Under the pieces are notes generated by a model. That model had not been told where the DNA came from. It searched no databases and was given only the letters and a program-made list of their open reading frames with translations. Made by a program: the position numbers and the translations under genes. DNA of 64,000 bases from a virus. The stretch lies in the UHGV virus genome UHGV-0180032; one strand, 5' to 3'. Each line of letters starts with the position of its first letter. The first letter of the stretch is position 1. Shown here piece by piece: positions 6,840 through 64,000 of this stretch.

Positions 6840-9800
6840 CTAAGTACGATCCCCTAACTGCTTCCCGTTAAGTTCTCGTTTCAGTACAGAAAGTATCCAT
6901 TTCCACGCTTTACTCGTGATGTGGTACGGATTGCGTTTCTCCATTAAGAACTGCTTTTCACCGCTACGCAGTTCGAAGCTCTGCGCATTAAGCTGATCCT
7001 GACGAGTGCTTTGCTCATCGGTCACATCTAACGAACAGGTAAAGTTAAGCTCGTAACCTTCAGGATTATTACCCGGCGGGTCTAAGACAATATAGATGTC
7101 CTGACCTACACGTAAGTCGGTGGCCGTGATACTAATCGCTTTACCTACGTCAGCGCTGGTCGACAGAGCAAACTCCGCACTGTCCGTAGACGCTAAGAAT
7201 GGGTCTTTCCCTGCGTCACCGATAATCACCTTACCTGGCCAGTTACTTTTTATCGTTCCCGTCACTTTTGCAATTCGGTACTGTTGTTTATCGGCACCTT
7301 GTGCAAAACGGAGAATGAGTTTGTGACGATAACGACTTGCAGCAGCCTTAGTCGTACTCCACTCGTTGTTCCAGGAAGTGTGCAGTTCGTTGTTCTTCGC
7401 CATCAACGCACCGCGAGACAGCTTACGATCAAAGAACTGCGCAGGTAACTGCCCATCATGAGAAACCGCAACGCTTCCCTGACCAGTTGGCAAGGCAATG
7501 CTCTCCGTAACGCGATATTTCTGACTAATCTCATAAGTCGCAGGGTCAATCACAGACTGACTATAATCAGCGTCTTTGTTATCAGCCAAATACCCAACGG
7601 ATGAATCCAGATACGACTCAAACAGCGAACGTAAGTAATGATACTTATCAATGTTGATGTTGTTCGTAACCGGATCAATCAGCGCATGGCTAATCGTTAC
7701 TCGGCATTTCGCACTCAGTTCTTTAAACGACAACCCTATTCCGTCACCGGTGAAATAATCCACTAAGTCGAACGGGAATTGAATTTCCAACTGACGTTGT
7801 TTAACTGTCGTCGTCCCAAACTGCGAGAACGACAACGCTAAACGCAGCACACGCGTACTTACGTTATAACGGTAACGAATCATCCCACGAGGTGCATGGT
7901 TTGCAGAGATTTTATCTCGAGCGGCACCCCAGCCAATCAAATCGAGAATCGCGGGGTTGGTTTCTTCACCGTTGAACAACACGTCCTTAAACGTTGCATT
8001 CACCGCTGTTTCCCCAGACTCTTCCATTACCAACGGAATGTCAGTAACGTCTGAAACTGAACGGGAACCAATCCCCAACTTGCACGCTTTGGCCGTCAGA
8101 TCGATACGTACGTAACGGCGTTTAACACTCGCCCCTTGCGTTGACGTACACAGCACCAAATCCGGTGCAGCAGTAAGTGCTTGTGTTCCACCGACGTCGT
8201 CAACGTCAAACACAAACGAACCTTCGAATGTCGGTGCGTTGTTTTCTTTCGGGTTAAACGGTGTAAACCAGCAATACGGTGTAGCGCCTTCAGGTATCAC
8301 AACGTACTGAAGACTGGACTTCACGTTTTGGTTGTGTGCGTAAGTATAAAGACCACGACTGACAAGATGGAAAACATCACCTGTACCGGCTGCTAACGCT
8401 TTCCTAAAGATACACGCTCTCGGTTCGGCAATGGCACGGTTTAATAACGGCAACCGTGGGTTATCCGTTAACGCCCAGTCCACAGAACTGAGTCCGTGTG
8501 CTTTACGCGTGGCGATGTGTCCACTAACCTCGGCACTTTTCCCGAAATCAAACGTGGTTTCGAACCCTACCGTTTTATTCGCGTAATTCTCACCAGCAAC
8601 AATATCAACGTAACCGATATAACCGCGTTCAGGATCAACCGCGACGCTCTGAATCGGTTCAGCACGCGAATACAGAGAGCCTGTGAGCATGTTAACGTAC
8701 AGATAGTGACGAATCCCTACGTGCGTGGTAACAAACTCCTGGAGAAGCTCTACGCGCGTTTCAGGGCCACTGAAGTAAACGGGGTAATCCCCATCGTAAA
8801 CTTCAAACTGTACCGCTGCGGACTTAGCCGTATCGCTACATTCGGCTTTAACCGCTATTGTGTAGTTTTCAACGTCTGATGACGTTTCGTACACTGCAAC
8901 GAGCGGAGACTCGCCTGACGCTGCCAGGTTACCGTTAATGTAAACCGTAACCGGACCGCCGCCCGCAGCATAAACCCAGAGCTTTGATTGGTACGCCCTT
9001 ACACGCGTTTTTGCCAGTACCGTAACCACTGACTGGTCACCCATCTGAGTAGCGGTTTTACCTACCGCAACAGACTGGAATCCCATCAACGGCGGTTCTT
9101 CAATACCTGTCCAGTTGATTCCCGTACCGTTACTCACCTTACCCGTAGGCCAAGTCAGTTCAAGCTGGTTGTTAGGTGAGAACCAGTTAAACATCGGGGT
9201 GGTTTGCAGGTCAATCGCACCAGTAACGGTACTGTCGCCTTTCGTCCCGTCCAGCAAATAGAAATATTTCAAATCCTGAACAGAGATTGACGTACCCTGG
9301 CTATTAAAACGCCAGTCCGCACCTTTCACAGCAGCAAAATCGGTTACCGTACCTTCTTTCGCGTTTGCAATTGCCGCAGCGACCACATCTAAACGTGCTG
9401 AAAGCTCTTTTAGGATGTTCGGTACCACCGCTCGGTTTTCAACTAAGCCGTTCTGGTTAGTTGCGTAACGACCAATACCGTAAATCGTCTGCGAGGCTTT
9501 ATAAATGCCTAACTCTGACCAGTCGTGATGGTGACCGACATCTGCTAAACCACTAACCGAAGCATTCAGTGCGGTAGACAACGGTTTGTCAAGGTCTGCG
9601 GTGTTATCCGCTTGCCCTAATCCCAGGTCAGCTTTCGTGATTGTCCTGGAACCGTCGTTCATCGGCTTACCGTTAATCATGGTCGTTTTAGTCACGTACC
9701 CTGATAAGTCGGTTGAATACGGCGTTAATGACGCAGGAGTTGCTGCAACCCCAACCGTTTCTGTGCCTTTACCGGTTTTAAGCTTAACAACACCTTTTTC

Positions 9801-16687: not shown

Positions 16688-16692
16688 GTAAC

Positions 16693-16734
16693 CTCCTACC
16701 CTCTTAGAGGGTAGGAGTAGCACGTTTTTTTTTT
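16693..16734. terminator. bidirectional intrinsic terminator
   Basis: Stem CTCCTACCCTC/AGGGTAGGAG with TTAG loop followed by T10; sits between convergent gene ends 16687 and 16738. Confidence 0.75.
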
Positions 16735-18132: not shown

Positions 18133-18155
18133 GAAATGTAATCAGATATATTTTA
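18133..18155 (+). promoter_or_regulatory. conserved promoter-like motif, copy 1
   Basis: CAGATATATTTTACTTAGGTGAG; immediately followed by a 10-bp-stem hairpin (18157-18183). Confidence 0.4.
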
Positions 18156-22434: not shown

Positions 22435-22457
22435 CAGATATATATTACTCAGGTGAG
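22435..22457 (+). promoter_or_regulatory. conserved promoter-like motif, copy 2
   Basis: CAGATATATATTACTCAGGTGAG; followed by hairpin 22456-22474; upstream of the secreted-protein gene cluster. Confidence 0.4.
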
Positions 22458-22504: not shown

Positions 22505-22966
22505 ATGAAAATCTTCACTTCCTTTTTAATCGCCCTTTTCGCAATCGGATTCAATACTGCACACGCCGCAATCAATAGCTGGGAACAACTACCGAACCCA
22601 GGTCAGGCTGTTTACGAAATTGAAGATACCGCCGGAAACGGACTGTCTATCAACTGTGACACTGAAACTGCGAATCGCAAATTTTACGGTCGCATGGTTT
22701 GGTATTACGGGGAACCTGTAGGTGCAACTAACGCTGAAGACAACACGTTGGATATTGTCGTAAATGGCAAAACCTACAACATCCCTACCGTGGATGGTAG
22801 TGACAAAGCAGAACTCGCTTGGGTGGCTTTCGTTAACGCTATCGGTAACGCCAAAACGTTCAGTGTGAATATCAATGGTAACGAAGCTGCTAACTTTACC
22901 GTAGAAGGCGAACGTCTGTCGGAAACTTTCTTCCAGAACTGTGGACACACCCGTCCTAACAAATAA
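22505..22966 (+). CDS. secreted/periplasmic hypothetical protein
   Basis: N-terminal signal-peptide-like segment MKIFTSFLIALFAIGFNTAHA; GAGGAG RBS. Confidence 0.55.
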   Translation: MKIFTSFLIALFAIGFNTAHAAINSWEQLPNPGQAVYEIEDTAGNGLSINCDTETANRKFYGRMVWYYGEPVGATNAEDNTLDIVVNGKTYNIPTVDGSDKAELAWVAFVNAIGNAKTFSVNINGNEAANFTVEGERLSETFFQNCGHTRPNK

Positions 22967-22988
22967 GTATTAATCTTTTTTAGAGTGC

Positions 22989-23381
22989 GTGAAAATGAAT
23001 ATCAGAACTATACTTTATACAATCATTATTTTCTGTGCAATCGGCATTACTGGCACTTATGCTTTCGGTGGCTCGGATGTCAGCCATTACGAACCGGCTC
23101 CTGACTCACCGATTATCAACCCGGATGAGTCCCCTACGTTAATGCGCAGTTTCGGTAAACTGCAAGTTTATCGCTTAGTACGTGGTGAAACGTGTACCGG
23201 ATTACTCATTGCTGACACCCGTGCACAAGTCTACCAACGTCTGACGGATATCGCCTGCGAACAACCAAAAGTCATGTCGGTCAGTATTCATCCGTTAGAG
23301 GTCGGTAATTATACTGCTGTGGACTTCTTCCATAATGCAGAACTGATTGGCCGTATTACTTTAAATCGTAGCGCTGAATAA
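22989..23381 (+). CDS. secreted/periplasmic hypothetical protein
   Basis: N-terminal hydrophobic leader ...ILYTIIIFCAIGITGTYA; start could be GTG 22989 or ATG 22995. Confidence 0.5.
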   Translation: MKMNIRTILYTIIIFCAIGITGTYAFGGSDVSHYEPAPDSPIINPDESPTLMRSFGKLQVYRLVRGETCTGLLIADTRAQVYQRLTDIACEQPKVMSVSIHPLEVGNYTAVDFFHNAELIGRITLNRSAE

Positions 23382-23399
23382 TTTAATGGAGAATTTACA

Positions 23400-23888
23400 A
23401 TGAAACGTTTACACACCCTGATGTTCTTCGTGGCTATTCTTTTCACAGGCTTTACCTTTAACGCAGAAGCGGCTACCGTAAAACAAGCTCTTAGCTGTAA
23501 CCCGGAAGCCTGGGCTGAACAACCTGGTGCGTGTCCATCAACGTACGAGTTGTACGAAGGTGACGCTACCTACAAAGCCGCTATCGACAAAGCATTAAAA
23601 CCGGTCGGACTGAGCGGCATGTTCGGTAAAGGCGGCTATATGGATGGCCCTGGTGGAGGTATCACGCCAGTAAACATTAACGGTACAGTCTGGCTCCAGG
23701 GCGACGGTTGCAAAGCCAATACCTGCGGCTGGGACTTTATCGTAACACTCTATAACCCAAAAACCCATGAAGTTGTTGGCTACCGTTACTTTGGTTTAGA
23801 TGACCCGGCCTACCTGGTTTGGTTCGGTGAAATTGGCGTGCATGAATTCGCGTATCTGGTGAAAAACTACGTAGCTGCGGTTAACTAA
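23400..23888 (+). CDS. secreted Ivy-like (lysozyme/lytic-transglycosylase inhibitor) candidate
   Basis: Signal peptide MKRLHTLMFFVAILFTGFTFNAEA; KGG-Y ... GCKANTCG loop resembling the Ivy C-K-x-x-x-C motif, compared against a sequence recalled from memory. Confidence 0.4.
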   Translation: MKRLHTLMFFVAILFTGFTFNAEAATVKQALSCNPEAWAEQPGACPSTYELYEGDATYKAAIDKALKPVGLSGMFGKGGYMDGPGGGITPVNINGTVWLQGDGCKANTCGWDFIVTLYNPKTHEVVGYRYFGLDDPAYLVWFGEIGVHEFAYLVKNYVAAVN

Positions 23889-23903
23889 TTTAAGGAGTCT
23901 ATC

Positions 23904-24314
23904 ATGAAAACGTTTATCAAAACTTTACTCGTTGCTGTAACTGTTCTGTTCTCTCTTAACGTGGCAGCAAAAACAGTAAAACTACCGGCGGGTATCAAAT
24001 ACGTCAACAGTACCGATGAATTCTACTGCACAGAAATTGACGGTCTGTATTGCCAGACAAAGAATTTGTTTGAATACAAAGGTAACAGATATGTTTTCGT
24101 TGTTGAGCAAGGCGGTGCCTGGTGCTACGACAGCCCTATGTCGGTACTCAACCTGGAAACTTGGAAAGCACAGAAAATTGAATACAAAGACAACCAACTG
24201 TGTTCAGGCGAAAACAAACCGTTCTTCAAAATCAAAAATGGTGTCCCGACTGTAGGTATTATCGACACCTCTGGAACACCAATCGTTGTAGCTCAGGACA
24301 AACTTAAAATCTAA
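23904..24314 (+). CDS. secreted/periplasmic Cys-containing hypothetical protein
   Basis: Signal peptide MKTFIKTLLVAVTVLFSLNVAA; AAGGAG RBS; several Cys residues. Confidence 0.55.
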   Translation: MKTFIKTLLVAVTVLFSLNVAAKTVKLPAGIKYVNSTDEFYCTEIDGLYCQTKNLFEYKGNRYVFVVEQGGAWCYDSPMSVLNLETWKAQKIEYKDNQLCSGENKPFFKIKNGVPTVGIIDTSGTPIVVAQDKLKI

Positions 24315-24324
24315 GGAGTAAACC

Positions 24325-24714
24325 ATGCGTCTTATCTGCGCTTTGTTGGCGTTTTTCTCAATCGGAGTTATGGCTTCTACACACATCGACGATTTATTAC
24401 TTACCCCGGCAACGAACACAGACTATCACTACAACCCACCGGGTTTTGAAGTCTGCGAAGGCGATGCAGGCGAATGCCAAGAAGTTGGCGCAGATGGACG
24501 CTATATACTCGTAAAAGCAGACGGCGGGACAACCTGTCCTGCGGGTTATTATTTCGTACTTGACTCTGTAGCAAAAGAGGTGCTTCCTGTAACGACCAAA
24601 ACGTGTGACCCCACAGTTGTACTAACGCTTGCGAAAAGCAAATCACGTGACCGTCATCTTATCGTCATCGAAGAACGCGGTGAGATGCTAGGCGCTATCG
24701 AATTAGATTACTGA
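24325..24714 (+). CDS. secreted/periplasmic Cys-containing hypothetical protein
   Basis: Signal peptide MRLICALLAFFSIGVMAS; AAGGAG RBS; terminator follows. Confidence 0.55.
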   Translation: MRLICALLAFFSIGVMASTHIDDLLLTPATNTDYHYNPPGFEVCEGDAGECQEVGADGRYILVKADGGTTCPAGYYFVLDSVAKEVLPVTTKTCDPTVVLTLAKSKSRDRHLIVIEERGEMLGAIELDY

Positions 24715-26017: not shown

Positions 26018-28522
26018 ATGTTAAAAGTTGAACGTATTGTACTTAAAGGATTTACCGGAATGGGGTTACACGAAATCGAAACCTTCGATTTTACTATCCA
26101 TTCCCCGACCACCATTATCCTCGGTGGTAACGGCTGCGGTAAGACCAGCTTACTGTCCGTGTTTCTACCTATCGCACCTTCGAAATCCGAATTCCGTGAC
26201 GGGGGTTCTTACACCAATATCTGTTTGGTTAACGACCATCGTTACAAGTTTAAAGTTGCACGTAAAGGCAACTCACTGGTTTGCGATATCGAGAACCTGA
26301 CGACGGGTACCAAAATCGTCGAGCAAGGTAATGCGAAAGTGTACAACTCTCGCGTGGAAGAAATCACGGGTATTACAAAAGAGATTAAAGAGTTACTGAA
26401 CGGGGAAGTGCTTTTAACCGATGCAGGAACGGAACTGCGTCGTAAGTGGTTCTACCGTTTAAGTACATCAGACTTAACGTACGCGTTAGGTTTTTATCAA
26501 CGTTTACGAAAAAACCTGACGATGCTAAACGGCGGTATTGAAATCACCAGCCGTAAAATTGCAGAGTTGCGTACCCGCGTAATTGATAACGAGGAAGAAC
26601 GACAGCAGTTAGCAACACGGTTAAAAGCATTAGAAGCAGATTTACGTGAACTCAACAAACAGATCGAACAACTGCCTGGTCTGAATCGTGACGTTACGGT
26701 GGCAACGATTCAATCGCTATTGCTTAAAATCGAAGCACCGATTAATGCTATCTTGGAACACCGTGGTGGATTACCTACGGAAGAACAGGTAGAGGAAGCA
26801 CGACGCGTTGAAGCCACTGCCCGTGAAGCGGTGGTCTCTGCTGAAACAGAACTGTCTATGCTAAACAAAGATTTGTCTTTGTTGATGGACGAGTCTACCC
26901 GCCAAGATTACCTGATGCGAAATCACGAAGGGTTAAAGAACACGGTTGCGAAACTGCGCGAGTTATTAAAGCAGTGGGACACTGAGCACCTTTTCCCTGA
27001 ACTGTTTGCGGAGACCGTTAACATCGACCAGCTTAAAGCAGCGACGGATGCGCGTGTCTGGGGACAACGTTTAGGAACAACGCTGGACGCCATTAAATCA
27101 ACGGAACGGTTGAACGTACTGGAAGAGAAACTGTTGACCTTAGACCAAAACTCGTCTGGGTTGCGTGACCGACTGCAACGTGTTGAAAACGTATTGCAGA
27201 ACCTCAACCACGAACGGAATCACTATTTGGAAACCGCCGAGGTTGATTGTCCGCAGTGTCAGTTTAAATTCCGTCCGGGTGTCCGTCGTTCTTTGCCTGA
27301 ATTGGAAGAAGCCATTCGTGGGCAGATGGAGCAACGTAATACGTTACAGACTCAACTTGATTCCGTGTTGCGAGACCGTACGGAATTAGAATCGGACGTT
27401 AATTACATGCGTCAAGTACGAGAAATCGTTTTAACATACTCGAAAGACCCGGTATTGAGTTTGTTCTTTAAACGTCTCCAGGAGCGGAATGTCTTTACGG
27501 ATAACCGCAGTCAGTTCGGCAGTTTGTGCGCAGAGTTCGATCGTGAACTTTATTCCGCAATTGAGTACCACGAAACGAAACACCGTTTCGCTAAAGCGGA
27601 AAAAGAGTGGGCAAACGCAGTTGCAGCGGTAGGTAACGTTGACGGTGCACTACAGCAGAAAATTGCCTTCCAACAGGAACGTTTGGGTAAGGCAACAGAA
27701 ACGCTCTCAGAGCGCCGTAGAGAGCACGCAGTTGCTAATGATACCTTTTGTTATCTAAACGAACTTAAAGCCACTGTAGACAATTTTAATGCGGTTTTTG
27801 AGCGTTTAGAGAACGATGTTAAGGTAACATTAACCAACACGGTGGTCGAAACGTTATTAAACGCCCGAGAAAACAAGTTGGATGCGTTCACCACAGCACG
27901 AGAACGGTATCGTCAAATGGAAAACGAACTCAACCAACTTACTGCGTTAGAAAAGGAGTTATCAGATTTACAAGCGCAGCAATTCAATAACAAGCTGATG
28001 ATTCAAGCGTTCTCGCCCGAGAAAGGGGTACTACGCAAATACTTCTACAACGCTATCGTGAGAATCACGGAATTGATGACGCGGTATATCGAACAAGTCT
28101 GGACCTACCCTATGCGGGTCATGCCGTGTGACTTAACCGACGGTGACTTAGACTACACCTTCCCAGTGCAGTTGAAAACCCATCCTGAACCGGTACCTGA
28201 CGTACGGAAAGGGTCGAAAGCACAGCGAGCCATCTTTAATTTGATGTTTCGTTTAACCGCTTACAAGGCCCTGAAACTCCATCAGTATCCGCTACTGTTG
28301 GATGAACCGTCAGAAGGGATGGATGAAGAACACCGAAATAACCTCGTTGGGTTTATTAAAACCTTGGCGAATTCCGGTGAGTTCTCTCAGTTACTGGTGG
28401 TGTCTCACGAAGCAGAAATTCATTCAAAACTTAACGAAGCCGCATACTGTGTTATTGAACCTGAAGGCGTAACACTGCCTGCGGTTTACAATGAAGGAGT
28501 AAAAATTGTCTACGCAAACTGA
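26018..28522 (+). CDS. Rad50/SbcC-like recombination ATPase (T4 gp46-like) with zinc hook
   Basis: Walker A GGNGCGKTS near the N-terminus; long heptad-rich middle with CPQC hook; C-terminal KGSKAQRAIFNLMF (signature-like), LLLDEPSEGMD (Walker B/D-loop) and VVSHE (H-loop); start 26018 (or 26006) chosen over the ORF-track 25841, which would run through the upstream terminator. Confidence 0.75.
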   Translation: MLKVERIVLKGFTGMGLHEIETFDFTIHSPTTIILGGNGCGKTSLLSVFLPIAPSKSEFRDGGSYTNICLVNDHRYKFKVARKGNSLVCDIENLTTGTKIVEQGNAKVYNSRVEEITGITKEIKELLNGEVLLTDAGTELRRKWFYRLSTSDLTYALGFYQRLRKNLTMLNGGIEITSRKIAELRTRVIDNEEERQQLATRLKALEADLRELNKQIEQLPGLNRDVTVATIQSLLLKIEAPINAILEHRGGLPTEEQVEEARRVEATAREAVVSAETELSMLNKDLSLLMDESTRQDYLMRNHEGLKNTVAKLRELLKQWDTEHLFPELFAETVNIDQLKAATDARVWGQRLGTTLDAIKSTERLNVLEEKLLTLDQNSSGLRDRLQRVENVLQNLNHERNHYLETAEVDCPQCQFKFRPGVRRSLPELEEAIRGQMEQRNTLQTQLDSVLRDRTELESDVNYMRQVREIVLTYSKDPVLSLFFKRLQERNVFTDNRSQFGSLCAEFDRELYSAIEYHETKHRFAKAEKEWANAVAAVGNVDGALQQKIAFQQERLGKATETLSERRREHAVANDTFCYLNELKATVDNFNAVFERLENDVKVTLTNTVVETLLNARENKLDAFTTARERYRQMENELNQLTALEKELSDLQAQQFNNKLMIQAFSPEKGVLRKYFYNAIVRITELMTRYIEQVWTYPMRVMPCDLTDGDLDYTFPVQLKTHPEPVPDVRKGSKAQRAIFNLMFRLTAYKALKLHQYPLLLDEPSEGMDEEHRNNLVGFIKTLANSGEFSQLLVVSHEAEIHSKLNEAAYCVIEPEGVTLPAVYNEGVKIVYAN

Positions 28523-28706
28523 TTGGTGGCGTCAGTTACTAAGCGTTTTAGGGTTTAGCGTCATGGTACTGGTTGCCATTCTGTACGTGCTATTTTGTAT
28601 AACGGCGATTTTATGGGTGGTCTTAGCGTACGCGATTAGACTCGCCTGGGGTTCAATTTGGCACCAACGCGAATGTGAGTGGCGGTGTGTTGGAGGGAAG
28701 TCATGA
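28506..28706 (+). CDS. small membrane protein
   Basis: TTG start preceded by AAGGAGT; single strong hydrophobic helix; overlaps the end of the Rad50-like gene. Confidence 0.35.
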   Translation: MSTQTDWWRQLLSVLGFSVMVLVAILYVLFCITAILWVVLAYAIRLAWGSIWHQRECEWRCVGGKS

Positions 28707-28863: not shown

Positions 28864-28992
28864 ATGACTGTTGTCAATACTACCAATGCTGCAATTGGCG
28901 CTTTATACAACGCGGAACTAACATGGGGTGCGGGATTTATTACCGTACTGCTTCTCGCCGCAGCCGCTTTTATCATTGGACGTTGGTTTTAA
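28864..28992 (+). CDS. small membrane protein (42 aa)
   Basis: GAGGGGAAACC before ATG; C-terminal helix GFITVLLLAAAAFIIGRWF. Confidence 0.3.
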   Translation: MTVVNTTNAAIGALYNAELTWGAGFITVLLLAAAAFIIGRWF

Positions 28993-30212: not shown

Positions 30213-30710
30213 ATGCTAACGATACTTCCAGAATCGGATATTAACAACGACCTGTTTAACGCGCCTGAACGCTTCAAGGTCGTTACGATAAATTGCGTAG
30301 GGGCAATGGGTCGGGGTATCGCTTTAGCGTGCAGAGAACGCTATCCTGGGCTTTATCAGGACTACCGAGAGCGTTGCTTCGCTAACGAAATACGAATAGG
30401 GAATGTGTACGTTTACCCCGAGGAAAACTGCATTCTCTTACCAACAAAAACACATTGGAAACTGAAATCCCAGGTTTCTTATGTTATCGCGGGTATCACC
30501 GCGTTGGCAGATGCCGCAGAAAACTTAGAGGGTGGGGTGGCTTTACCGCCGTTGGGGATGGCTAACGGTTGGTTGACAAAAGCTGAACGTCAACAAATCT
30601 TTTTGTTTATCGAAAAGAAACTCGTACCGAGGAGACAACATTACCGTTTCTATTTACCTGATACGCTTTACCAAGAAGCAAAACCTTTAATTCCAAACCT
30701 TTTTAAATAG
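30213..30710 (+). CDS. macro-domain (ADP-ribose-processing, TARG1/DarG-like) protein candidate
   Basis: N-terminal VVTINCVGAMGRGIALACRERYPG resembles the macro-domain MG-x-GIA ligand-binding strand; later LPPLGMANG; assignment by motif memory only. Confidence 0.4.
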   Translation: MLTILPESDINNDLFNAPERFKVVTINCVGAMGRGIALACRERYPGLYQDYRERCFANEIRIGNVYVYPEENCILLPTKTHWKLKSQVSYVIAGITALADAAENLEGGVALPPLGMANGWLTKAERQQIFLFIEKKLVPRRQHYRFYLPDTLYQEAKPLIPNLFK

Positions 30711-30728
30711 ATATTATCATTAGGGCAC
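30705..30728 (+). promoter_or_regulatory. promoter-like motif, degenerate copy
   Basis: AAATAGATATTATCATTAGGGCAC; overlaps the stop of the macro-domain gene. Confidence 0.25.
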
Positions 30729-30810
30729 ACAACAAAGGAGTACCAGCTGTCCGCGCCGTGATTTCGTTCTACGGAACACGGAAATGTATAAATCCAACTG
30801 GAGAACTAGT

Positions 30811-31497
30811 ATGTTTCGTATTTTCTTTCTTTTACTGGTAACACTTTTCGCGTTTAACGCATACGCATCCAAATCCGCGCCCAGTGCCAAACACCATCGT
30901 GAATTCGAAATGATTCAAGACCGTTTCGAACGTGTAAAACCGTTGATTGTGGAAATCTCCCGAAAGCAGGGCGTCGATCCTAAATTGATGACCACGCTAA
31001 TCTATCGAGAGTCACGGTTTAATCCGAAGGCGTATAATCGAACGTCTAAAGCGCACAGTCTGGTTCAGATGCTACCGAGCACAAAGCGTAATTTGCTAAA
31101 ACTCTACGGCAACGAAATCGGGCTTAGTCGTAACGCGGATTTGTACAATCCTCGCAATGCGGTGCTATTGGCTTCCGTCTACGTTAAACATTTAGAAAAG
31201 GGGTTGACTAAACGACTCAAACGCAAGCCCACTATTGCAGAAATTGCATTGGCTTATCACTGGGGTGAAAGCGGTGCACACGCCAGGATTAAAAGCAAGT
31301 CTCGGGCAGCACAACGAGAAATGGCGAGCTTTATGAAAGATGCAACGTTCTACAGTGCGAAAATCGACAAGCCTGTAGCGTCTCGTCAGCTTGCGTTTGC
31401 GAAGAAACCAGAACGCCAGATTCAGTTAGCGGAAGTTAACCGAATTTGGGATACGATAAACACCAGTTTTCCATTTAAACAAGGAGTCACCCTTTGA
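30811..31497 (+). CDS. secreted lytic transglycosylase (SLT-domain)
   Basis: Signal peptide MFRIFFLLLVTLFAFNAYA; catalytic-region motif RESRFNPKA...SKAHSLVQMLPST matches the SLT E-S ... GLMQ pattern; GGAGAA RBS before ATG 30811 (ORF-track start 30784 possible). Confidence 0.6.
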   Translation: MFRIFFLLLVTLFAFNAYASKSAPSAKHHREFEMIQDRFERVKPLIVEISRKQGVDPKLMTTLIYRESRFNPKAYNRTSKAHSLVQMLPSTKRNLLKLYGNEIGLSRNADLYNPRNAVLLASVYVKHLEKGLTKRLKRKPTIAEIALAYHWGESGAHARIKSKSRAAQREMASFMKDATFYSAKIDKPVASRQLAFAKKPERQIQLAEVNRIWDTINTSFPFKQGVTL

Positions 31498-32003
31498 GCA
31501 TCGTTGTAACCGATTGGTATAAAGGTATCACTAAGGCTACCCAACTTACTGCCCAGGACGTATACAGCATCGTTCGTAGCAGTAGCGAAGACCAGATAAA
31601 GTCCGACGAAGACTTTGCAACGCGTCATGAGTTTTACGATGCCCTTAAAACGGCTTTCGGTGATGACGAAGAAGAAGGTTTAGAGTTTGACTGGAATGTC
31701 AACCTTGCCTTGTTGTGGATTTGCGGATTACGTCCGAGTGTGAAAGACACGGAGCAAGGGAAAGTTCTGTTGTGGCACTACACCGGTAAATACAATCCGA
31801 ACCAGGTCTTTAAAGAAGCGTATATGGAAGCCACTGTAGAGTTACAGAATCTGCTGTTGGGTGAGAACACCTACTGCCAGCGTAGCTTCCTGACGATTCT
31901 GGAGAAACTGGCGACTACGCACAAAATCTGGCGACAGGCAGATGCCCCTGAACACATCTTCGTTCTGGAATTTGCTGTGATTCCAAACCAACCGTTCTTC
32001 TAA
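31494..32003 (+). CDS. hypothetical protein (169 aa)
   Basis: TTG start with AAGGAGT RBS, TTGA overlap with the upstream stop; terminator follows. Confidence 0.45.
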   Translation: MSIVVTDWYKGITKATQLTAQDVYSIVRSSSEDQIKSDEDFATRHEFYDALKTAFGDDEEEGLEFDWNVNLALLWICGLRPSVKDTEQGKVLLWHYTGKYNPNQVFKEAYMEATVELQNLLLGENTYCQRSFLTILEKLATTHKIWRQADAPEHIFVLEFAVIPNQPFF

Positions 32004-32009
32004 TACTTG

Positions 32010-32047
32010 CCCCTAATCCGATTGGATTAGGGGTACTTTTATTTATT
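32010..32047 (+). terminator. intrinsic terminator
   Basis: CCCCTAATCC/GGATTAGGGG stem with GATT loop followed by a T-rich tract. Confidence 0.7.
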
Positions 32048-32066: not shown

Positions 32067-32546
32067 ATGTTGAAGTTTATCTGGCGTTACCCAACCCGCT
32101 TTTGGTTCGTGGTATTAGAGGTAATCACCGTTCTACTGTTAGTGACGTTCGTAAACGTCCCTACGAAACAAATGGTGATTTTCTGTGTATTCGTGTCTAT
32201 ACCGCTGTGGGTGTTTGCAAAGATTATTAAGTTTTGCATGATAAGCTGGGCGAACTATACCTGCCCATTTAAACCCAGAGAAATCATGAACTGGCTGATG
32301 TATATCGAAGACCGTTTACCCGCTCAGTCTAAAACACTGGGCTGGGAATCGATGTTGGATATTGCGCTAGAAACGAATGCAAAATTTCCTGGGTCAAAGA
32401 ATCCTTATTTGCTGCTGGCTGTTATTGTTGCTCAGCAGAAACGTGCGGGCGAACGCTGGTTACCGAAAGAAGCGAAAGACTATATTCGTAAACACCCGAA
32501 GGCTTTCTATTCTGTAGGCCAATGGCGTAACCTCCCACTTTTCTAA
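32067..32546 (+). CDS. membrane protein (two predicted TM helices)
   Basis: AAAGGAG RBS; hydrophobic segments FWFVVLEVITVLLLVTFV and VIFCVFVSIPLWVFAKII. Confidence 0.5.
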   Translation: MLKFIWRYPTRFWFVVLEVITVLLLVTFVNVPTKQMVIFCVFVSIPLWVFAKIIKFCMISWANYTCPFKPREIMNWLMYIEDRLPAQSKTLGWESMLDIALETNAKFPGSKNPYLLLAVIVAQQKRAGERWLPKEAKDYIRKHPKAFYSVGQWRNLPLF

Positions 32547-33551: not shown

Positions 33552-33585
33552 CCCTACTCCTCCGGGAGTAGGGTTATTCTTTTTT
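33552..33585 (+). terminator. intrinsic terminator (CCCTACTCC family)
   Basis: CCCTACTCC/GGAGTAGGG stem followed by TTATTCTTTTTT. Confidence 0.75.
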
Positions 33586-34161: not shown

Positions 34162-34198
34162 TACCCTACTCCCGAAAAGGAGTAGGGTAATTTCTTTT
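34162..34198. terminator. intrinsic terminator (CCCTACTCC family), between convergent genes
   Basis: TACCCTACTCC/GGAGTAGGGTA stem followed by ATTTCTTTT; adjoins the stop of the minus-strand gene at 34197. Confidence 0.7.
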
Positions 34199-36222: not shown

Positions 36223-36726
36223 ATGGGTTCATTTCTTAAAGTGCTTCCGTTCTTCATTCAGATGTTGATGGAAGCATTTAAACCAGGAGAAGGAGAAAAC
36301 GTATCAAGAGCAAACAAGATAATGACTTTAATCATCACGGTCTTGTTATCCTATTCGGCTTTCGTCTCCTATGCGTACGTAGTGCAGTTTCACAAGCTCG
36401 TTACAGTACAATCTCATGATCAATACATGTCGCAATCTTACCAAGAGATGAAGCAAGATCGTGACAAACTGAAAGATGATAATGGTAGACTATACGACAA
36501 GCTCTTTATTTGCCTCGGCCAGAAACCGCCATATGAAAGCGGGTACAGCTCGGTAAAAGAAGACAACTCTACCAAAGATTTAACACCTAAGAAACCAGAA
36601 ACTCCTGTTAGCCCAGCTTCAACACCAGAACAACGCAGAGAAGCTTCGGCGCGACCTGTTGGTAGTCAAAACGCTAACAGTTTCCGTCAGGAGATCATAA
36701 AGACGTTATCCTCACCTAAGGAGTAA
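36223..36726 (+). CDS. membrane protein with N-terminal TM helix and Pro-rich C-terminus
   Basis: GAGGTGA RBS; hydrophobic ...IMTLIITVLLSYSAFVSYAYVV; C-terminal PKKPETPVSPASTPEQ. Confidence 0.5.
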   Translation: MGSFLKVLPFFIQMLMEAFKPGEGENVSRANKIMTLIITVLLSYSAFVSYAYVVQFHKLVTVQSHDQYMSQSYQEMKQDRDKLKDDNGRLYDKLFICLGQKPPYESGYSSVKEDNSTKDLTPKKPETPVSPASTPEQRREASARPVGSQNANSFRQEIIKTLSSPKE

Positions 36727-36729
36727 CTG

Positions 36730-37185
36730 ATGAAATTGCTGTTATTCATCATGATTTTGTGCGTGGGTTTGGTGAGTAATAGCTATGGAGAACCCGGTAA
36801 ACGGCCATCCTATACTGCGTTACAACCTCCGCCAGCGCCGCCTATCATGCTAAATTGGAAGATTGATAAAGACGCGATGCGGGAATATGTTGCGGATGTG
36901 AATACATACGCTTATTACGTTTATCTCTACACACGAAACTTAAATCAACAAGCAGTCAAACGTGGGTGGAATCCACCGATGTTAGCACCTATCTGCGAAC
37001 GGTTTGAAATTCCTAAATTACATTCCGTTCCAGAAAAGATGTTATTAGACGACAAAGCGTTAACGCCACAAGAAATCAGTCTGGATTTGTCACGTAAACT
37101 GAATTCGTTGTTGTGGAATGATCGCTCTGACCGACAAGCTTTATTAGACGCCTACGATCAGTATCTGACAACGTGTTTGAACTGA
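36730..37185 (+). CDS. secreted hypothetical protein
   Basis: Signal-peptide-like MKLLLFIMILCVGLVSNSYG; starts 4 nt after the previous stop; terminator follows. Confidence 0.5.
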   Translation: MKLLLFIMILCVGLVSNSYGEPGKRPSYTALQPPPAPPIMLNWKIDKDAMREYVADVNTYAYYVYLYTRNLNQQAVKRGWNPPMLAPICERFEIPKLHSVPEKMLLDDKALTPQEISLDLSRKLNSLLWNDRSDRQALLDAYDQYLTTCLN

Positions 37186-53484: not shown

Positions 53485-53488
53485 TACC

Positions 53489-53528
53489 TACCCTACTCCT
53501 AGACAGGAGTAGGGTATTTTCATTTTTT
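53489..53528 (+). terminator. intrinsic terminator (CCCTACTCC family)
   Basis: TACCCTACTCC/GGAGTAGGGTA stem followed by TTTTCATTTTTT. Confidence 0.75.
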
Positions 53529-61075: not shown

Positions 61076-64000
61076 TTAACCTGCACGTCTAACGTTAAGC
61101 TGTCGTGCTGGCTGTTCAACGGACATTTGTCGTGATGCTGAACCTGCTGGTGCCGTAGGTTTAGACGATACAGTGTTTTGTACCGGCTGCGGTCGTTGTT
61201 TAAGGATCGTGACAATCTCTTTGAGATAGCCCGCCGATTCTTTTGCAACAGCCAACTGTTGAACACTAATCGGATCACCACTGCTGAGAGTAGGCCCGCT
61301 TTGTGCATCAGAAGTAACCGCAGGTGCCGGTTTGCTCGTCGCTGCTGCACGCTGCACAGCACCTTCTTTCACTTTCTCGACATCTTCTTCAGGCAACCCT
61401 TCATTTCTGGCTCCAGCTGCAACGGTCTCCCCAATCACAGAGGCATCACCGCCTGCACTACTACCGCCAGGTGACGGTACTGCTGGGCCACCACTGGTTG
61501 CGGCTTTGACGTTGTCTGCACCCATTGCACCTTTCTCTGCTAACGCATCATCACGACGCGCAGCATTCGATGCAGGTAGGTTATCAGCCGGATCAGAAAT
61601 TGATGGATCGTTAGCTGCTCCTGCTGCTACCGCCGGAGAGGAGGCAACCGCAGGCGTTAGCCCTTTCACCATGTCTTTCGTTGAAGCCGGATTAGCCGCA
61701 ATTTCGTTTGTCGCCACAGCACCCATGCGACGGTTCAGTTCATTAATAACTTCACCAACAGTACGAATACGAACAATCTGCTTGCCACGCATTTCGTAGA
61801 AGACTCCTTTATTACCTCTAAGGATTTGAGGAGTAATGCCTTCTGCTTTGTCGGCTGGCATGTTCGGATTCTGCCGCCATGCATTAAGGAACTTCTTACC
61901 ACCGCCTGGGCCCAAGAAGTGATACAGATACGCAACAGCCGGAGGCGGTTCTACACCACCCAGGTCTTTCTGCGCCTGCATGATATTATCGCGAATAAAC
62001 TGCACACCGAGAATGGTATTTGCCCACGGGTCGTACTGGTTTACTTGCGGTATACCGTACCGACGAGAATATCCTTTCATCATTCCAGACCACGTTTTGT
62101 CAATGAACTGGAACAACCCTGCTGCCGACGCACCTGGGTTCTTGACACCGTATTTGAAATCAGATTCGGCTTTCGCCATCGCGATCGCAACCGCAGGCGG
62201 AACACCTAAGGTATTTGCGACATCCGCAATCATCGCCTTAACGCCTTCTACGTTAGGTGACTCACCACTACCCAGTTTACTGATTGGGTACTTCTCAGCC
62301 AAGGTTTTGTAGTCACCCTCTTTGACGTCTCCGAGTTTAATCCCGGATTGGCCCGTAGAGAACTTCGCGTAATTGCTGATGCCCATCTCGCCCACAACTT
62401 GAGACAAGTCGCCCGGTGTACCGTAAGACGCACCACCGTTTGGCAAGTACCCATCGTTAGACGCTGTACCCCAATCAACGACACCTTTGAAACGATCTTT
62501 GGTGTCTTCGTCGGTTTGGTACATTCTCGTCGCACGATCGGCTTTCTGCCATTTCGCACGTTTACCTGCTGCTGGCGTAGACCGCAGGGTATTACGAACA
62601 GCCAGGTCAGGTTCTTTGGACAGTTCTTTCAGGTTGGCAAGTTCGGTAGCAACAGAACCTGCGTCGGTGTTTGCTTCTTCACCCAGTGGGTTGAACGGAA
62701 TCTCCCACACGGATTGACGAATACCGCCCTTCATGTTGTAAGCGCCACGAATCATCAACGCCAATTCGTACATGAACCCACCGGACACTTTCAGTTCGGT
62801 AGGGTCTGCTTGCGGAATGTAACGTTTCAGACCAACGACGTAGGTCATATACGCCGGTAAGAAACGGTTGTAGAACCAGTTCTTACAACGCTCCTCTTTA
62901 GGGCCACCTATCAGGTCAGGTGAGATAACCGCAATGGCTTCTTTCCAGTTGCCTTTATAGGTACAGTTCTTCACATCAATGTCTTTCAACACGTTCTTCT
63001 CTAACAGCGTGAAAAGATTACGCGTTGTTTGGTTGATAGTCACCGCACCGTAAGTTTTCCACCTGACCGATTCCAGGTCTTCCAAATCGCTTTTCTTCGG
63101 TAACGAATGCCAGTCAACTTGGATTTGAACCTGCTCGGTTCCGTCTTCCCATCCTTCAACTTTTGCAACTTTTTCGTTACGTTCAGCATCTGCATTCGCC
63201 AGTACCTGACTGGTTTCAGCAACAGACGCAACCTTGTGACCTTCGACGGCGTCACGCATACCCGAACGTTGTTTCCGTTTGTCGTCAGTACGCATGTTGA
63301 TTGACCGCCACACGCGTTCCTGTGCTTCGACAACCTCTTCCCCTGACAAGAACTCTGCCGGAGTAAAGGTAACGAAATCCCACGCTTTAGAGAACCAACC
63401 CTGGTTAACTTTACGCGGGTCAGTCAACGAACGGAACTCCGCAGAATCTTTACCCATCTTCATTTTGTTGTAGAGGGTAATCATATCCGCTTTCGACACT
63501 TTCTTCGGATCACCAACATCCGCTAGAGCGATATCGTTATCCATCGACTTCAGTGCTGAAATCCAGCGGAGATAAATCGGTGCGAAACGTTGTAGCATAA
63601 ACGCAGTAAATGCTAACATCTCACCACGTTCTTCTAAGTTTACACCGAACCCTTCTGCGAGTTTCTTCACGTCTTCAGAAGACAAGCCACGTAATTGTGC
63701 TTCACCCCCTTCGGTATACGAGACGTAAGGTTTCAAAGCGTCTTCTAAATAACGGGCTTTCATACCGTCTTCAGAAGACCACTGGTCGTAGTCACGGAAA
63801 CCGTACTGTGCCAGACGCATATAGTCGAGGTATTGTGCTTTCACACGGGTAGCGCATTTATACGCCCAATAACCCAGACCAGCGGCAGTCGCGCCGATCA
63901 CAATTGCAGGCCAACCCACCGCAGCCACTACCGTAGATGCAGCCGAGGCTACCGCAGTCACTGCCGGAACCGCTAAACGTTGTACGGCAAACTTACCAAC
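61076..64000 (-). CDS. virion-associated lytic transglycosylase-domain protein (5'-partial; ORF open to the window edge)
   Basis: SLT-like catalytic region ...AMAKAESDFKYGVKNPGASAAGLFQFIDKTW...; N-terminal hydrophobic segment; C-terminal Ala/Gly/Pro/Ser-rich low-complexity tail; frame has no stop between 63961 and 64000, so the true start probably lies beyond the window. Confidence 0.55.
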   Translation of the reverse strand, partial: VGKFAVQRLAVPAVTAVASAASTVVAAVGWPAIVIGATAAGLGYWAYKCATRVKAQYLDYMRLAQYGFRDYDQWSSEDGMKARYLEDALKPYVSYTEGGEAQLRGLSSEDVKKLAEGFGVNLEERGEMLAFTAFMLQRFAPIYLRWISALKSMDNDIALADVGDPKKVSKADMITLYNKMKMGKDSAEFRSLTDPRKVNQGWFSKAWDFVTFTPAEFLSGEEVVEAQERVWRSINMRTDDKRKQRSGMRDAVEGHKVASVAETSQVLANADAERNEKVAKVEGWEDGTEQVQIQVDWHSLPKKSDLEDLESVRWKTYGAVTINQTTRNLFTLLEKNVLKDIDVKNCTYKGNWKEAIAVISPDLIGGPKEERCKNWFYNRFLPAYMTYVVGLKRYIPQADPTELKVSGGFMYELALMIRGAYNMKGGIRQSVWEIPFNPLGEEANTDAGSVATELANLKELSKEPDLAVRNTLRSTPAAGKRAKWQKADRATRMYQTDEDTKDRFKGVVDWGTASNDGYLPNGGASYGTPGDLSQVVGEMGISNYAKFSTGQSGIKLGDVKEGDYKTLAEKYPISKLGSGESPNVEGVKAMIADVANTLGVPPAVAIAMAKAESDFKYGVKNPGASAAGLFQFIDKTWSGMMKGYSRRYGIPQVNQYDPWANTILGVQFIRDNIMQAQKDLGGVEPPPAVAYLYHFLGPGGGKKFLNAWRQNPNMPADKAEGITPQILRGNKGVFYEMRGKQIVRIRTVGEVINELNRRMGAVATNEIAANPASTKDMVKGLTPAVASSPAVAAGAANDPSISDPADNLPASNAARRDDALAEKGAMGADNVKAATSGGPAVPSPGGSSAGGDASVIGETVAAGARNEGLPEEDVEKVKEGAVQRAAATSKPAPAVTSDAQSGPTLSSGDPISVQQLAVAKESAGYLKEIVTILKQRPQPVQNTVSSKPTAPAGSASRQMSVEQPARQLNVRRAG

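Follow-up and report, generated by a model that had tools for sequence, protein, structure and literature searches.

The 64-kb stretch of DNA analysed here (the window; 64,000 nucleotides of UHGV virus genome UHGV-0180032) encodes, at positions 30811 to 31497 on the plus strand, a small SLT-type lytic transglycosylase whose N-terminus has the anatomy of a cleavable Sec signal peptide. This protein is separate from a second SLT domain, which is embedded in a tape-measure protein running off the end of the window, and from a third muralytic enzyme of the GH108 family, whose gene lies elsewhere in the same phage lineage. Together, the three genes suggest three muralytic activities at three addresses, namely a virion tape-measure SLT, a cytoplasmic GH108 enzyme without a signal, and a periplasmic, Sec-exported SLT. 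The gene type of the small SLT is already annotated in the SPN3US-like phage group, and the label 'putative endolysin' that it routinely carries in relatives is corrected by the present analysis. What is added to that annotation is that the N-terminus reads as a signal peptide rather than a signal-anchor-release (SAR) domain, that the third, endolysin-type gene undermines the lysis label, and that an early-type promoter and a covarying leader make the regulation of the gene testable.

No near-DNA match to the 64-kb window was found among deposited phages, and its identity was drawn instead from protein searches. The encoded proteins and their order are those of the SPN3US-like giant myoviruses (Seoulvirus and the related Erwinia and Salmonella jumbo phages). 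The order near the small SLT gene, which runs SMC-like protein, GNAT acetyltransferase, macro-domain protein and SLT, is the same in SPN3US, and the plus-strand block holding the gene is made up of non-structural genes (SMC-like, GNAT, macro domain and RNase H). The elements of the gene are as follows.

30811..31497, plus strand: small secreted SLT-type lytic transglycosylase, 228-residue precursor (Pfam SLT, orthology, AlphaFold2/Foldseek)
30811..30867, plus strand: predicted Sec signal peptide, residues 1-19, with the signal peptidase I cut after A-Y-A (rule-based)
30946..31317, plus strand: SLT catalytic domain, residues 46-169 (limits from Pfam)
31009-31011, plus strand: codon of the catalytic Glu67 (alignment to known catalytic Glu residues)
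30800..30803, plus strand: Shine-Dalgarno GGAG, 7 nucleotides 5' of the ATG (read from the sequence; kept in the ortholog alignment)

The open reading frame (ORF) spans 30784/30811..31497 on the plus strand and yields 228 residues from the Met at 30811. The start was placed at 30811 because GGAG stands 7 nucleotides upstream, because the annotated SPN3US coding sequence begins at the equivalent MFR, as does one of the two public calls (near-identical proteins in public assemblies are called as 228 residues with the MFR start, or as 237 residues), and because orthologous loci do not keep the in-frame ATG that stands further upstream, at 30784. The protein matched Pfam SLT (PF01464) over residues 46-169 with E=3.7e-14 and 52.7 bits against a cut-off of 21.3, and it matched phrog_4067, 'transglycosylase', at 5.7e-47. 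E67 and S68 are invariant among 14 aligned orthologs of about 50% identity, and E67 lines up with the catalytic E64 of MltE, with E115 of phiKZ gp144, with E1906 of phiKZ gp181 and with the Glu of the window's tape-measure SLT. SLVQM and AYHWGE fill the positions of the downstream GLMQ-like and AYNxG-like motifs of SLT enzymes. The AlphaFold2 model, in which the predicted local distance difference test score (pLDDT) is 84-95 across most of residues 30-180 and dips to 59-73 at residues 71-90, shows the goose-lysozyme-like helical fold, and Foldseek gave a probability of 1.00 to phiKZ gp144 (3bkh), MltE, MltC and Slt, with gp144, MltE and MltC as the top solved-structure matches. The small SLT shares 51-53% identity with SPN3US gp198 and with the 'putative endolysin' of Erwinia phage, and 27% identity with the catalytic domain of the phiKZ endolysin gp144 (E=1e-9). 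These results argue, with good confidence, that the 228-residue protein is a family-1 (SLT/GH23) lytic transglycosylase with an intact active site. A recent duplication of the phage's own tape-measure SLT was ruled out as its origin, the two being only 23% identical; the tape-measure SLT domains of other giant phages are closer to it (31-36%).

The N-terminus of the precursor reads M-F-R, IFFLLLVTLFAF and N-A-Y-A up to the predicted cut, with S-K-S following. One positive charge precedes a 12-residue Phe/Leu core, 17% of which is Gly/Ala/Ser/Thr; small residues occupy positions -3 and -1, and position +1 is not Pro. Judged by rule, this is the tripartite n-h-c signal expected of a Sec-exported endolysin of the Lys44 type. 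A19 and S20 are invariant among the same 14 orthologs, and the layout of M-x-R/K, hydrophobic core and A-x-A recurs in 28 of 29 small homologs (the orthologs together with those from a library-wide search, N-termini judged by inspection). The predicted mature protein has 209 residues, 24 kDa and an isoelectric point (pI) of 10.4, and contains no cysteine; a small, basic, cysteine-free lytic transglycosylase of this kind is naturally built for the Gram-negative periplasm. On rule-based grounds the N-terminus is a cleavable Sec signal and not a SAR domain, from which we infer export and cleavage. The sequence-only reading of this stretch, which had proposed a Sec-leader-bearing lytic transglycosylase at 30811-31497 and a catalytic Glu within it, is borne out by the Pfam match, the signal anatomy and the invariant E67-S68 pair aligned with the Glu of MltE, gp144 and gp181; the second SLT motif that it had placed in the large minus-strand protein is likewise present, as described below.

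The second SLT domain belongs to the following features.

61076..64000, minus strand: C-terminal ~974 residues of a tape-measure protein, cut by the window end (~60% identity to SPN3US gp239)
61964..62221, minus strand: SLT domain within the tape-measure protein (Pfam PF01464 match)
62165-62167, minus strand: codon of the catalytic Glu599 of the tape-measure SLT (AES motif alignment)

The minus-strand reading frame stays open up to the window end, so that the ORF at 61076-64000 covers just the C-terminal part of some larger protein. It is about 60% identical over residues 16-959 to the 2372-residue SPN3US gp239, of which it represents the C-terminal 40%, and it matches positions 1443-2405 of the 2408 positions of the tail-protein profile phrog_3201. 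By sequence, it is part of a ~2400-residue tape-measure protein of the SPN3US gp239 / phiKZ gp181 type. Its SLT domain matched PF01464 with E=2.1e-08 and 34.2 bits against a cut-off of 21.3, at residues 581-666 of the 961-residue listed ORF, and its AES motif falls, in the alignment, on the Glu that is catalytic in phiKZ gp144 and gp181. As in gp181, whose Glu lies at 1906 of 2237, the SLT domain sits near the C-terminal quarter of a large ORF, although only the C-terminal ~974 residues lie inside the window, in contrast to the full-length gp181 and gp239. Orthology to a ~2400-residue virion tail protein and a near-C-terminal SLT domain are both found here, as in a tape-measure protein with an embedded lysin.

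SPN3US gp239, a tape-measure protein of 259 kDa, was detected in virions, and tailless particles lack it (PMC5694885, PMC5105663). The SPN3US virion list of 86 proteins includes gp202, gp203, gp237, gp238 and gp239; gp198, the ortholog of the small SLT, is not among the 86, in a list that reaches proteins with 4 spectra. Because gp239 is found in SPN3US virions and gp198 is not, a split into a virion and a non-virion SLT is supported. By orthology, the tape-measure SLT would be the virion enzyme for crossing the wall at entry, and the small SLT would not be packaged.

The third muralytic gene was found by listing the genes of a complete relative, NZ_CP173450.1 (221,873 bp, recorded as a circular "plasmid" from E. 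coli strain 98232), which is of the same phage lineage as the window (97.8% identity over 8.9 kb).

NZ_CP173450.1 35123-35713, minus strand in that record (SPN3US 135425-136042): GH108 + PG_binding_3 protein, 196 residues (Pfam)

The gene lies about 8.4 kb past the window's left end and is absent from the window itself. Its product matched Pfam Glyco_hydro_108 (1.4e-21) and PG_binding_3 (1.6e-16) and has no hydrophobic N-terminus. It is 62% identical to SPN3US gp156 (SPN3US_0156), which carries the RefSeq label 'endolysin', and shares 65-66% identity with the proteins annotated as endolysins in Cronobacter phages CR3, CR8 and CR9; the gene is also conserved in Erwinia giant phages. SPN3US gp156 does not appear in the 86-protein virion list. 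GH108-PG3 proteins of other phages are experimentally active endolysins (PMC7188820), and a genome paper on a related phage names all three genes, as lytic glycosylase ORF200, N-acetylmuramidase ORF158 and tape-measure-fused lysozyme ORF243 (PMC7823757). The signal-less GH108 protein is a candidate endolysin of the canonical type. The sequence-only reading had assigned one SLT to the virion and the other to lysis; the division into virion and non-virion enzymes stood, through the orthology to gp239 and gp198, whereas the lysis label is unproven, in view of the third muralytic gene and the early-type motif described below. Since this third gene exists, the assignment of lysis to either SLT is not established. 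A 171-residue ORF near the GH108 gene (NZ_CP173450.1 33848-34363) carries HKFGNAFD and WLHID, which by eye resembles an M15/LAS-type peptidase, and gave no Pfam match.

The region 5' of the small SLT gene contains the following elements.

30705..30717, plus strand: promoter-like motif AAATAGATATTAT, invariant in 9 orthologous loci and overlapping the stop codon of the macro-domain gene
30723..30781, plus strand: conserved 5' leader (RNAalifold, pair counts)
30723..30752, plus strand: helix P1, in which GGGCA (30723-30727) pairs with UGUCC (30748-30752) (RNAalifold)
30756-30781, plus strand: hairpin made of CCGU, a variable covarying stem and ACGG (pair counts)

When the 9 orthologous loci (with proteins of about 50% identity) were aligned, conservation was far higher in the ~100 nucleotides 5' of the SLT gene than in the coding sequence. 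The elements kept there follow one another in the order AAATAGATATTAT, GGGCAC, ACAAAGGAG, GCTGTCCGCGCCGT, the CCGU/ACGG hairpin, GUAUAAAU and the Shine-Dalgarno sequence. Within the initial 50 kb of SPN3US, AGATATTAT has five copies where 0.21 would be expected, all on the plus strand (positions 7394, 15711, 23814, 25230 and 28973 of SPN3US piece L017). Four of the five sites lie 41-72 nucleotides 5' of plus-strand genes (gp9, gp22, gp30 and gp34), and the fifth lies inside gp30. SPN3US gp9 heads a run that includes the DNA polymerase subunit gp18, gp22 is followed by gp23, and gp34 by gp35; gp23, gp34 and gp35 each form a subunit of the non-virion RNA polymerase. Copies or close variants in the window precede plus-strand genes at 18144, 22436, 30709, 40188 and 49290. 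The structural-gene stretches that were scanned contained no AGATATTAT, bar one AGATATATT variant in NZ_CP173450.1, and AGATATTAT is absent 5' of the GH108 gene. In the window alone, the count of the 10-mer TAGATATTAT is not significant at one mismatch (4 found versus 3.15 expected), and what supports a promoter motif is therefore its invariance across phages together with the number of copies in SPN3US.

In jumbo phages that encode RNA polymerases, the sole conserved motif detectable by bioinformatics marks early promoters, those of the virion polymerase (review, PMC7598289). Because AGATATTAT is present 5' of the SLT gene and that review ties the detectable motif to early promoters, the SLT operon is probably of the early type. 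The recurring motif takes the form AGATAT(T/A)(A/T)T..., is intergenic on the plus strand and lies 5' of non-structural plus-strand genes (one SPN3US copy being intragenic). In SPN3US-like phages it probably represents the consensus of the early promoters, those of the virion RNA polymerase; a published consensus for it was not found in the literature searched.

The proposed leader structure has 90.5% of cells paired, against 30-52% when the partners are slid. Changes on both sides are seen in 5 of the 9 hairpin pairs, the covariation score was reached in 0 of 500 shuffles, and the hairpin folds in every ortholog. In the loci that matched, its exact pattern was found 5' of the SLT gene only, apart from two chance-like window matches inside coding regions. 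A terminator or a known RNA was ruled out, no U-tract following the hairpin and no Rfam family matching the leader, and a scan of IMG/VR for more diverse copies returned only the same giant-phage contigs and unrelated chance matches. In SPN3US, a 43-codon 'hypothetical protein', SPN3US_0197 (L001 5912-6043, minus strand), is annotated directly over the SLT leader and promoter motif and is probably a spurious gene call.

Downstream, the SLT gene is followed by a coupled partner and a terminator-like hairpin.

31494..32003, plus strand: acidic 169-residue cytoplasmic protein of the SPN3US gp199 family, translationally coupled to SLT
32008..32035, plus strand: intrinsic-terminator-like hairpin closing the pair of SLT and 169-residue genes (12-bp stem with 6 GC pairs, tail CTTTTATTTA)

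The TTG with which the 169-residue gene begins overlaps the stop codon of SLT; the 169-residue gene has its own AAGGAG, and its product has a pI of 4.7. This partner stands directly 3' of SLT at all loci examined, and nearly all of the rows listed from 53 phage records show it there as well. Its model has a pLDDT of 87; no Pfam or PDB sequence match was found for it, its PHROG is of unknown function, and BFVD gave one unnamed match. From this arrangement, co-expression of the SLT with a conserved partner under clade-specific regulation can be proposed with good confidence. SPN3US gp198 (AEP84031.1 / YP_009153492.1) is an ortholog, with 47-53% identity over the full length across an ortholog set that also comprises proteins of Erwinia phages Asesino, ChrisDB, phiEaH2 and Huxley, and pSal-SNUABM-04 ORF200 'lytic glycosylase'. 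These proteins share the signal peptide, the catalytic motif and the C-terminal extension, and their genes share the neighbourhood of macro-domain gene, SLT and gp199-like gene as well as the upstream motif and leader hairpin. The window lineage is nevertheless distinct from them (~222 kb, and the absence of a near-DNA match noted above), and its SLT has a shorter C-terminus than the Erwinia phage orthologs.

By analogy with exported endolysins, the reading that we favour, with confidence that is no better than even, is that the small SLT may be a Sec-exported periplasmic lysin of the Lys44 'e-endolysin' type which assists lysis beside the GH108 enzyme. The 19 N-terminal residues would serve as a cleavable Sec signal peptide, and a basic 24-kDa soluble enzyme would be freed into the periplasm without the need of a holin hole, where Glu67 would cleave the bonds between N-acetylmuramic acid (MurNAc) and N-acetylglucosamine (GlcNAc). 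The gene would be transcribed, probably early, with its coupled acidic 169-residue partner, the structured leader lying between promoter and start codon. The SLT would be pre-loaded in the periplasm and would act on the wall once the membrane becomes de-energised as infection ends, and the signal-less endolysin-type GH108 enzyme would work alongside it. Exported endolysins that are kept inactive until the proton motive force breaks down are an established class (PMC6116005), and if this ordinary reading is true the SLT would be one further exported phage lysin.

Several points weigh against a role in lysis. A canonical endolysin-type GH108 gene is present in the same lineage and in SPN3US, so that the SLT is not needed to explain lysis. 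The operons of the non-virion RNA polymerase and of the DNA polymerase share the upstream motif, and the GH108 gene lacks it, which points early, not late, and an early-type promoter is unusual in a gene dedicated to late lysis. A conserved holin adjoining the SLT gene was ruled out as a general rule, the membrane protein that follows the operon being variable, and absent in phiEaH2-like and Asesino-like loci. The signal peptide was assigned by rule, from n-h-c anatomy and the residues at -3 and -1. No mechanism restraining a soluble periplasmic lytic transglycosylase was identified, and no experiment on gp198, the orthologs named above or gp156 was found in the literature searched.

The comparison with characterised systems is relevant to how far a lysis role can be taken. 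Lys44 of Oenococcus phage fOg44 also combines a cleavable Sec signal on a phage muralytic enzyme with holin-independent export (PMC6116005), but it belongs to a Gram-positive system, is neither an SLT nor homologous, and it is for Lys44, of the two, that control by the proton motive force has been demonstrated. phiKZ gp144 (PDB 3bkh), the top structural match at 27% identity, is of the same SLT subfamily and shares the catalytic Glu-Ser, but carries PG_binding_1 at its N-terminus and lacks a signal, whereas the window SLT has a signal peptide instead; gp144 is located in the virion neck (9xps), and the neighbours of the window SLT are unlike gp141-143. The lysis of phiKZ, a nucleus-forming giant phage, has been worked out recently: gp144 depends on the holin gp142, and the cassette consists of spanins, a class III holin, the regulator gp143 and the endolysin (PMC12894885). 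When phiKZ gp140-144 were compared by BLASTP with ten window proteins (nine of them SLT neighbours), the SLT-gp144 match was the only one, and no homolog of gp141, gp141.1, gp142 or gp143 was found. The SLT gene does not stand beside holin, regulator and spanin homologs in the manner of phiKZ, and SPN3US-like phages have no recognisable copy of the phiKZ lysis cassette. E. coli MltE (EmtA) and MltC, the best sequence matches among solved structures, have the same fold and an aligned catalytic Glu; these are outer-membrane lipoproteins, whereas the phage SLT has no lipobox cysteine and should be soluble.

The best-surviving alternative, which we hold to be possible though on the unlikely side, is that the small SLT is an early periplasmic wall-remodelling enzyme and that lysis is done by the GH108 enzyme. 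The enzyme would be produced and sent out shortly after infection and would loosen or reshape the sacculus. Such remodelling could possibly serve cell swelling around the large replication compartment, muropeptide turnover, or a change to the wall met by a superinfecting phage. It would fit the invariant AGATATTAT common to the SPN3US DNA polymerase and non-virion RNA polymerase operons, the same motif in front of a block of five secreted proteins in the window, the tie between detectable motif and early promoters (PMC7598289), the motif-less endolysin candidate of canonical type in the virion-gene region, and the position of the SLT gene within the plus-strand non-structural block. However, promoter class and timing are what we infer from the motif, translation could be delayed by the conserved leader, the nearest relative that has been characterised is the endolysin phiKZ gp144, and the sequence names no specific remodelling function. 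Early transcription would also be compatible with a role in lysis, as T4 lysozyme, too, is transcribed early.

The secreted block mentioned above consists of five consecutive signal-bearing plus-strand ORFs (22505-22966, 22989-23381, 23400-23888, 23904-24314 and 24325-24714), preceded by the promoter-like TCAGATATATATTACTCAGGTGAG at 22436. No Pfam family was found in any of the five; PHROGs without an assigned function were matched by four of them, and no PHROG by the fifth. The five could be a module of secreted proteins made early. It may even be, and this we regard as doubtful and more tentative than remodelling as such, that the secreted SLT is not a lysis enzyme but part of an early, virion-RNA-polymerase-driven periplasmic programme with the 22505-24714 ORFs, which would re-engineer the host wall, and that its synthesis is gated by the structured, clade-specific leader RNA, possibly with the acidic partner. 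An Ivy-like protein, which the sequence-only reading had raised as a possible control on either SLT, was not detected at the level of sequence, no test of the fold having been made: Pfam Ivy (PF08816) had no match in the five secreted ORFs at 22505-24714, a CKPHDC-type motif was absent from ORFs of at least 40 codons in plausible gene frames (a lone CKPH lies in a plus-strand ORF over a large minus-strand gene), and an Ivy sequence reached at best E=0.46 against the window ORFs, in 23400-23888, for which a PDB sequence search returned nothing.

A SAR endolysin, in which an uncleaved segment would tether an inactive enzyme until a pinholin depolarises the inner membrane, is improbable here. The hydrophobic N-terminal segment, the 'putative endolysin' label of relatives and the small proteins with two transmembrane domains (TMDs) that follow the operon in most relatives are what such an endolysin would lead one to expect. 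SAR domains, however, are ~20 residues long and Gly/Ala-rich; those of P1 Lyz and R21, used as the comparison, are of ~20 residues with a Gly/Ala/Ser/Thr share of 55-65%, against 17-33% for the Phe/Leu-rich core of 10 of the 11 close orthologs. A SAR domain was ruled out for the window protein by the short core (12 residues), the low Gly/Ala/Ser/Thr share (17%), the conserved A-x-A|S cleavage site and the lack of any cysteine for a regulatory switch. Of the two modes that had been proposed from the sequence alone, Sec export is the one retained, on the anatomy and the invariant A19 and S20, and signal-anchor release is set aside on core length and composition. That the small SLT is a low-copy virion protein is far less credible again, for although it is related to the catalytic domain of gp144, a chain in the phiKZ neck structure 9xps, gp198 is absent from an SPN3US list reaching down to 4 spectra, a cleavable Sec signal would lead to the periplasm, away from cytoplasmic virion assembly, and the PG_binding_1 domain of gp144 is lacking.

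Further membrane and secreted proteins are encoded near the SLT operon.

32067..32546, plus strand: 159-residue membrane protein with two N-terminal hydrophobic segments (hydropathy scan; phrog_20030, function unknown)
36223-36726, plus strand: first protein of a spanin-like pair, with a transmembrane segment, a helical region and a Pro-rich tail (topology)
36730-37185, plus strand: second protein of the spanin-like pair, secreted (topology)

By its topology, the 159-residue protein is a weak candidate for a holin. Membrane proteins with one or two TMDs stand at this position after the operon in most relatives, including the 88-residue gp200 of SPN3US. Two tiny plus-strand membrane ORFs after the SMC-like gene, at 28506-28706 (66 residues, two TMDs) and 28864-28992 (42 residues, a C-terminal TMD), are additional holin-like candidates on the same topological grounds. 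The spanin-like pair lies 4.7 kb downstream. Its second protein has the lipobox LTGC in SPN3US (L001 11440-11919) and LMGC in the metagenomic relative L008 (8070-8546); in the window lineage, a 5-residue deletion removes the lipobox and leaves a signal of the signal peptidase I type (SYG, then E), and the close relative L020 has no cysteine at the lipobox position. The assignment of 36223-37185 as spanins is tentative.

Near-identical hairpin stems, CCCTACTCC...GGAGTAGGG, occur at 16688-16720, 33552-33573, 34162-34189 and 53485-53520, and are a repeated terminator module, not independent hairpins.

The same phage lineage as that of the window and NZ_CP173450.1 is also found as an Enterobacter ludwigii "plasmid" (NZ_CP134650.1, 222,441 bp), and the exact SLT protein is encoded on 170 contigs of ~225 kb labelled E. 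coli, Salmonella or Shigella. The occurrence of these sequences as "plasmids" and isolate contigs suggests either that the phage is widespread in a carrier or extrachromosomal state or that isolates have been contaminated recurrently.

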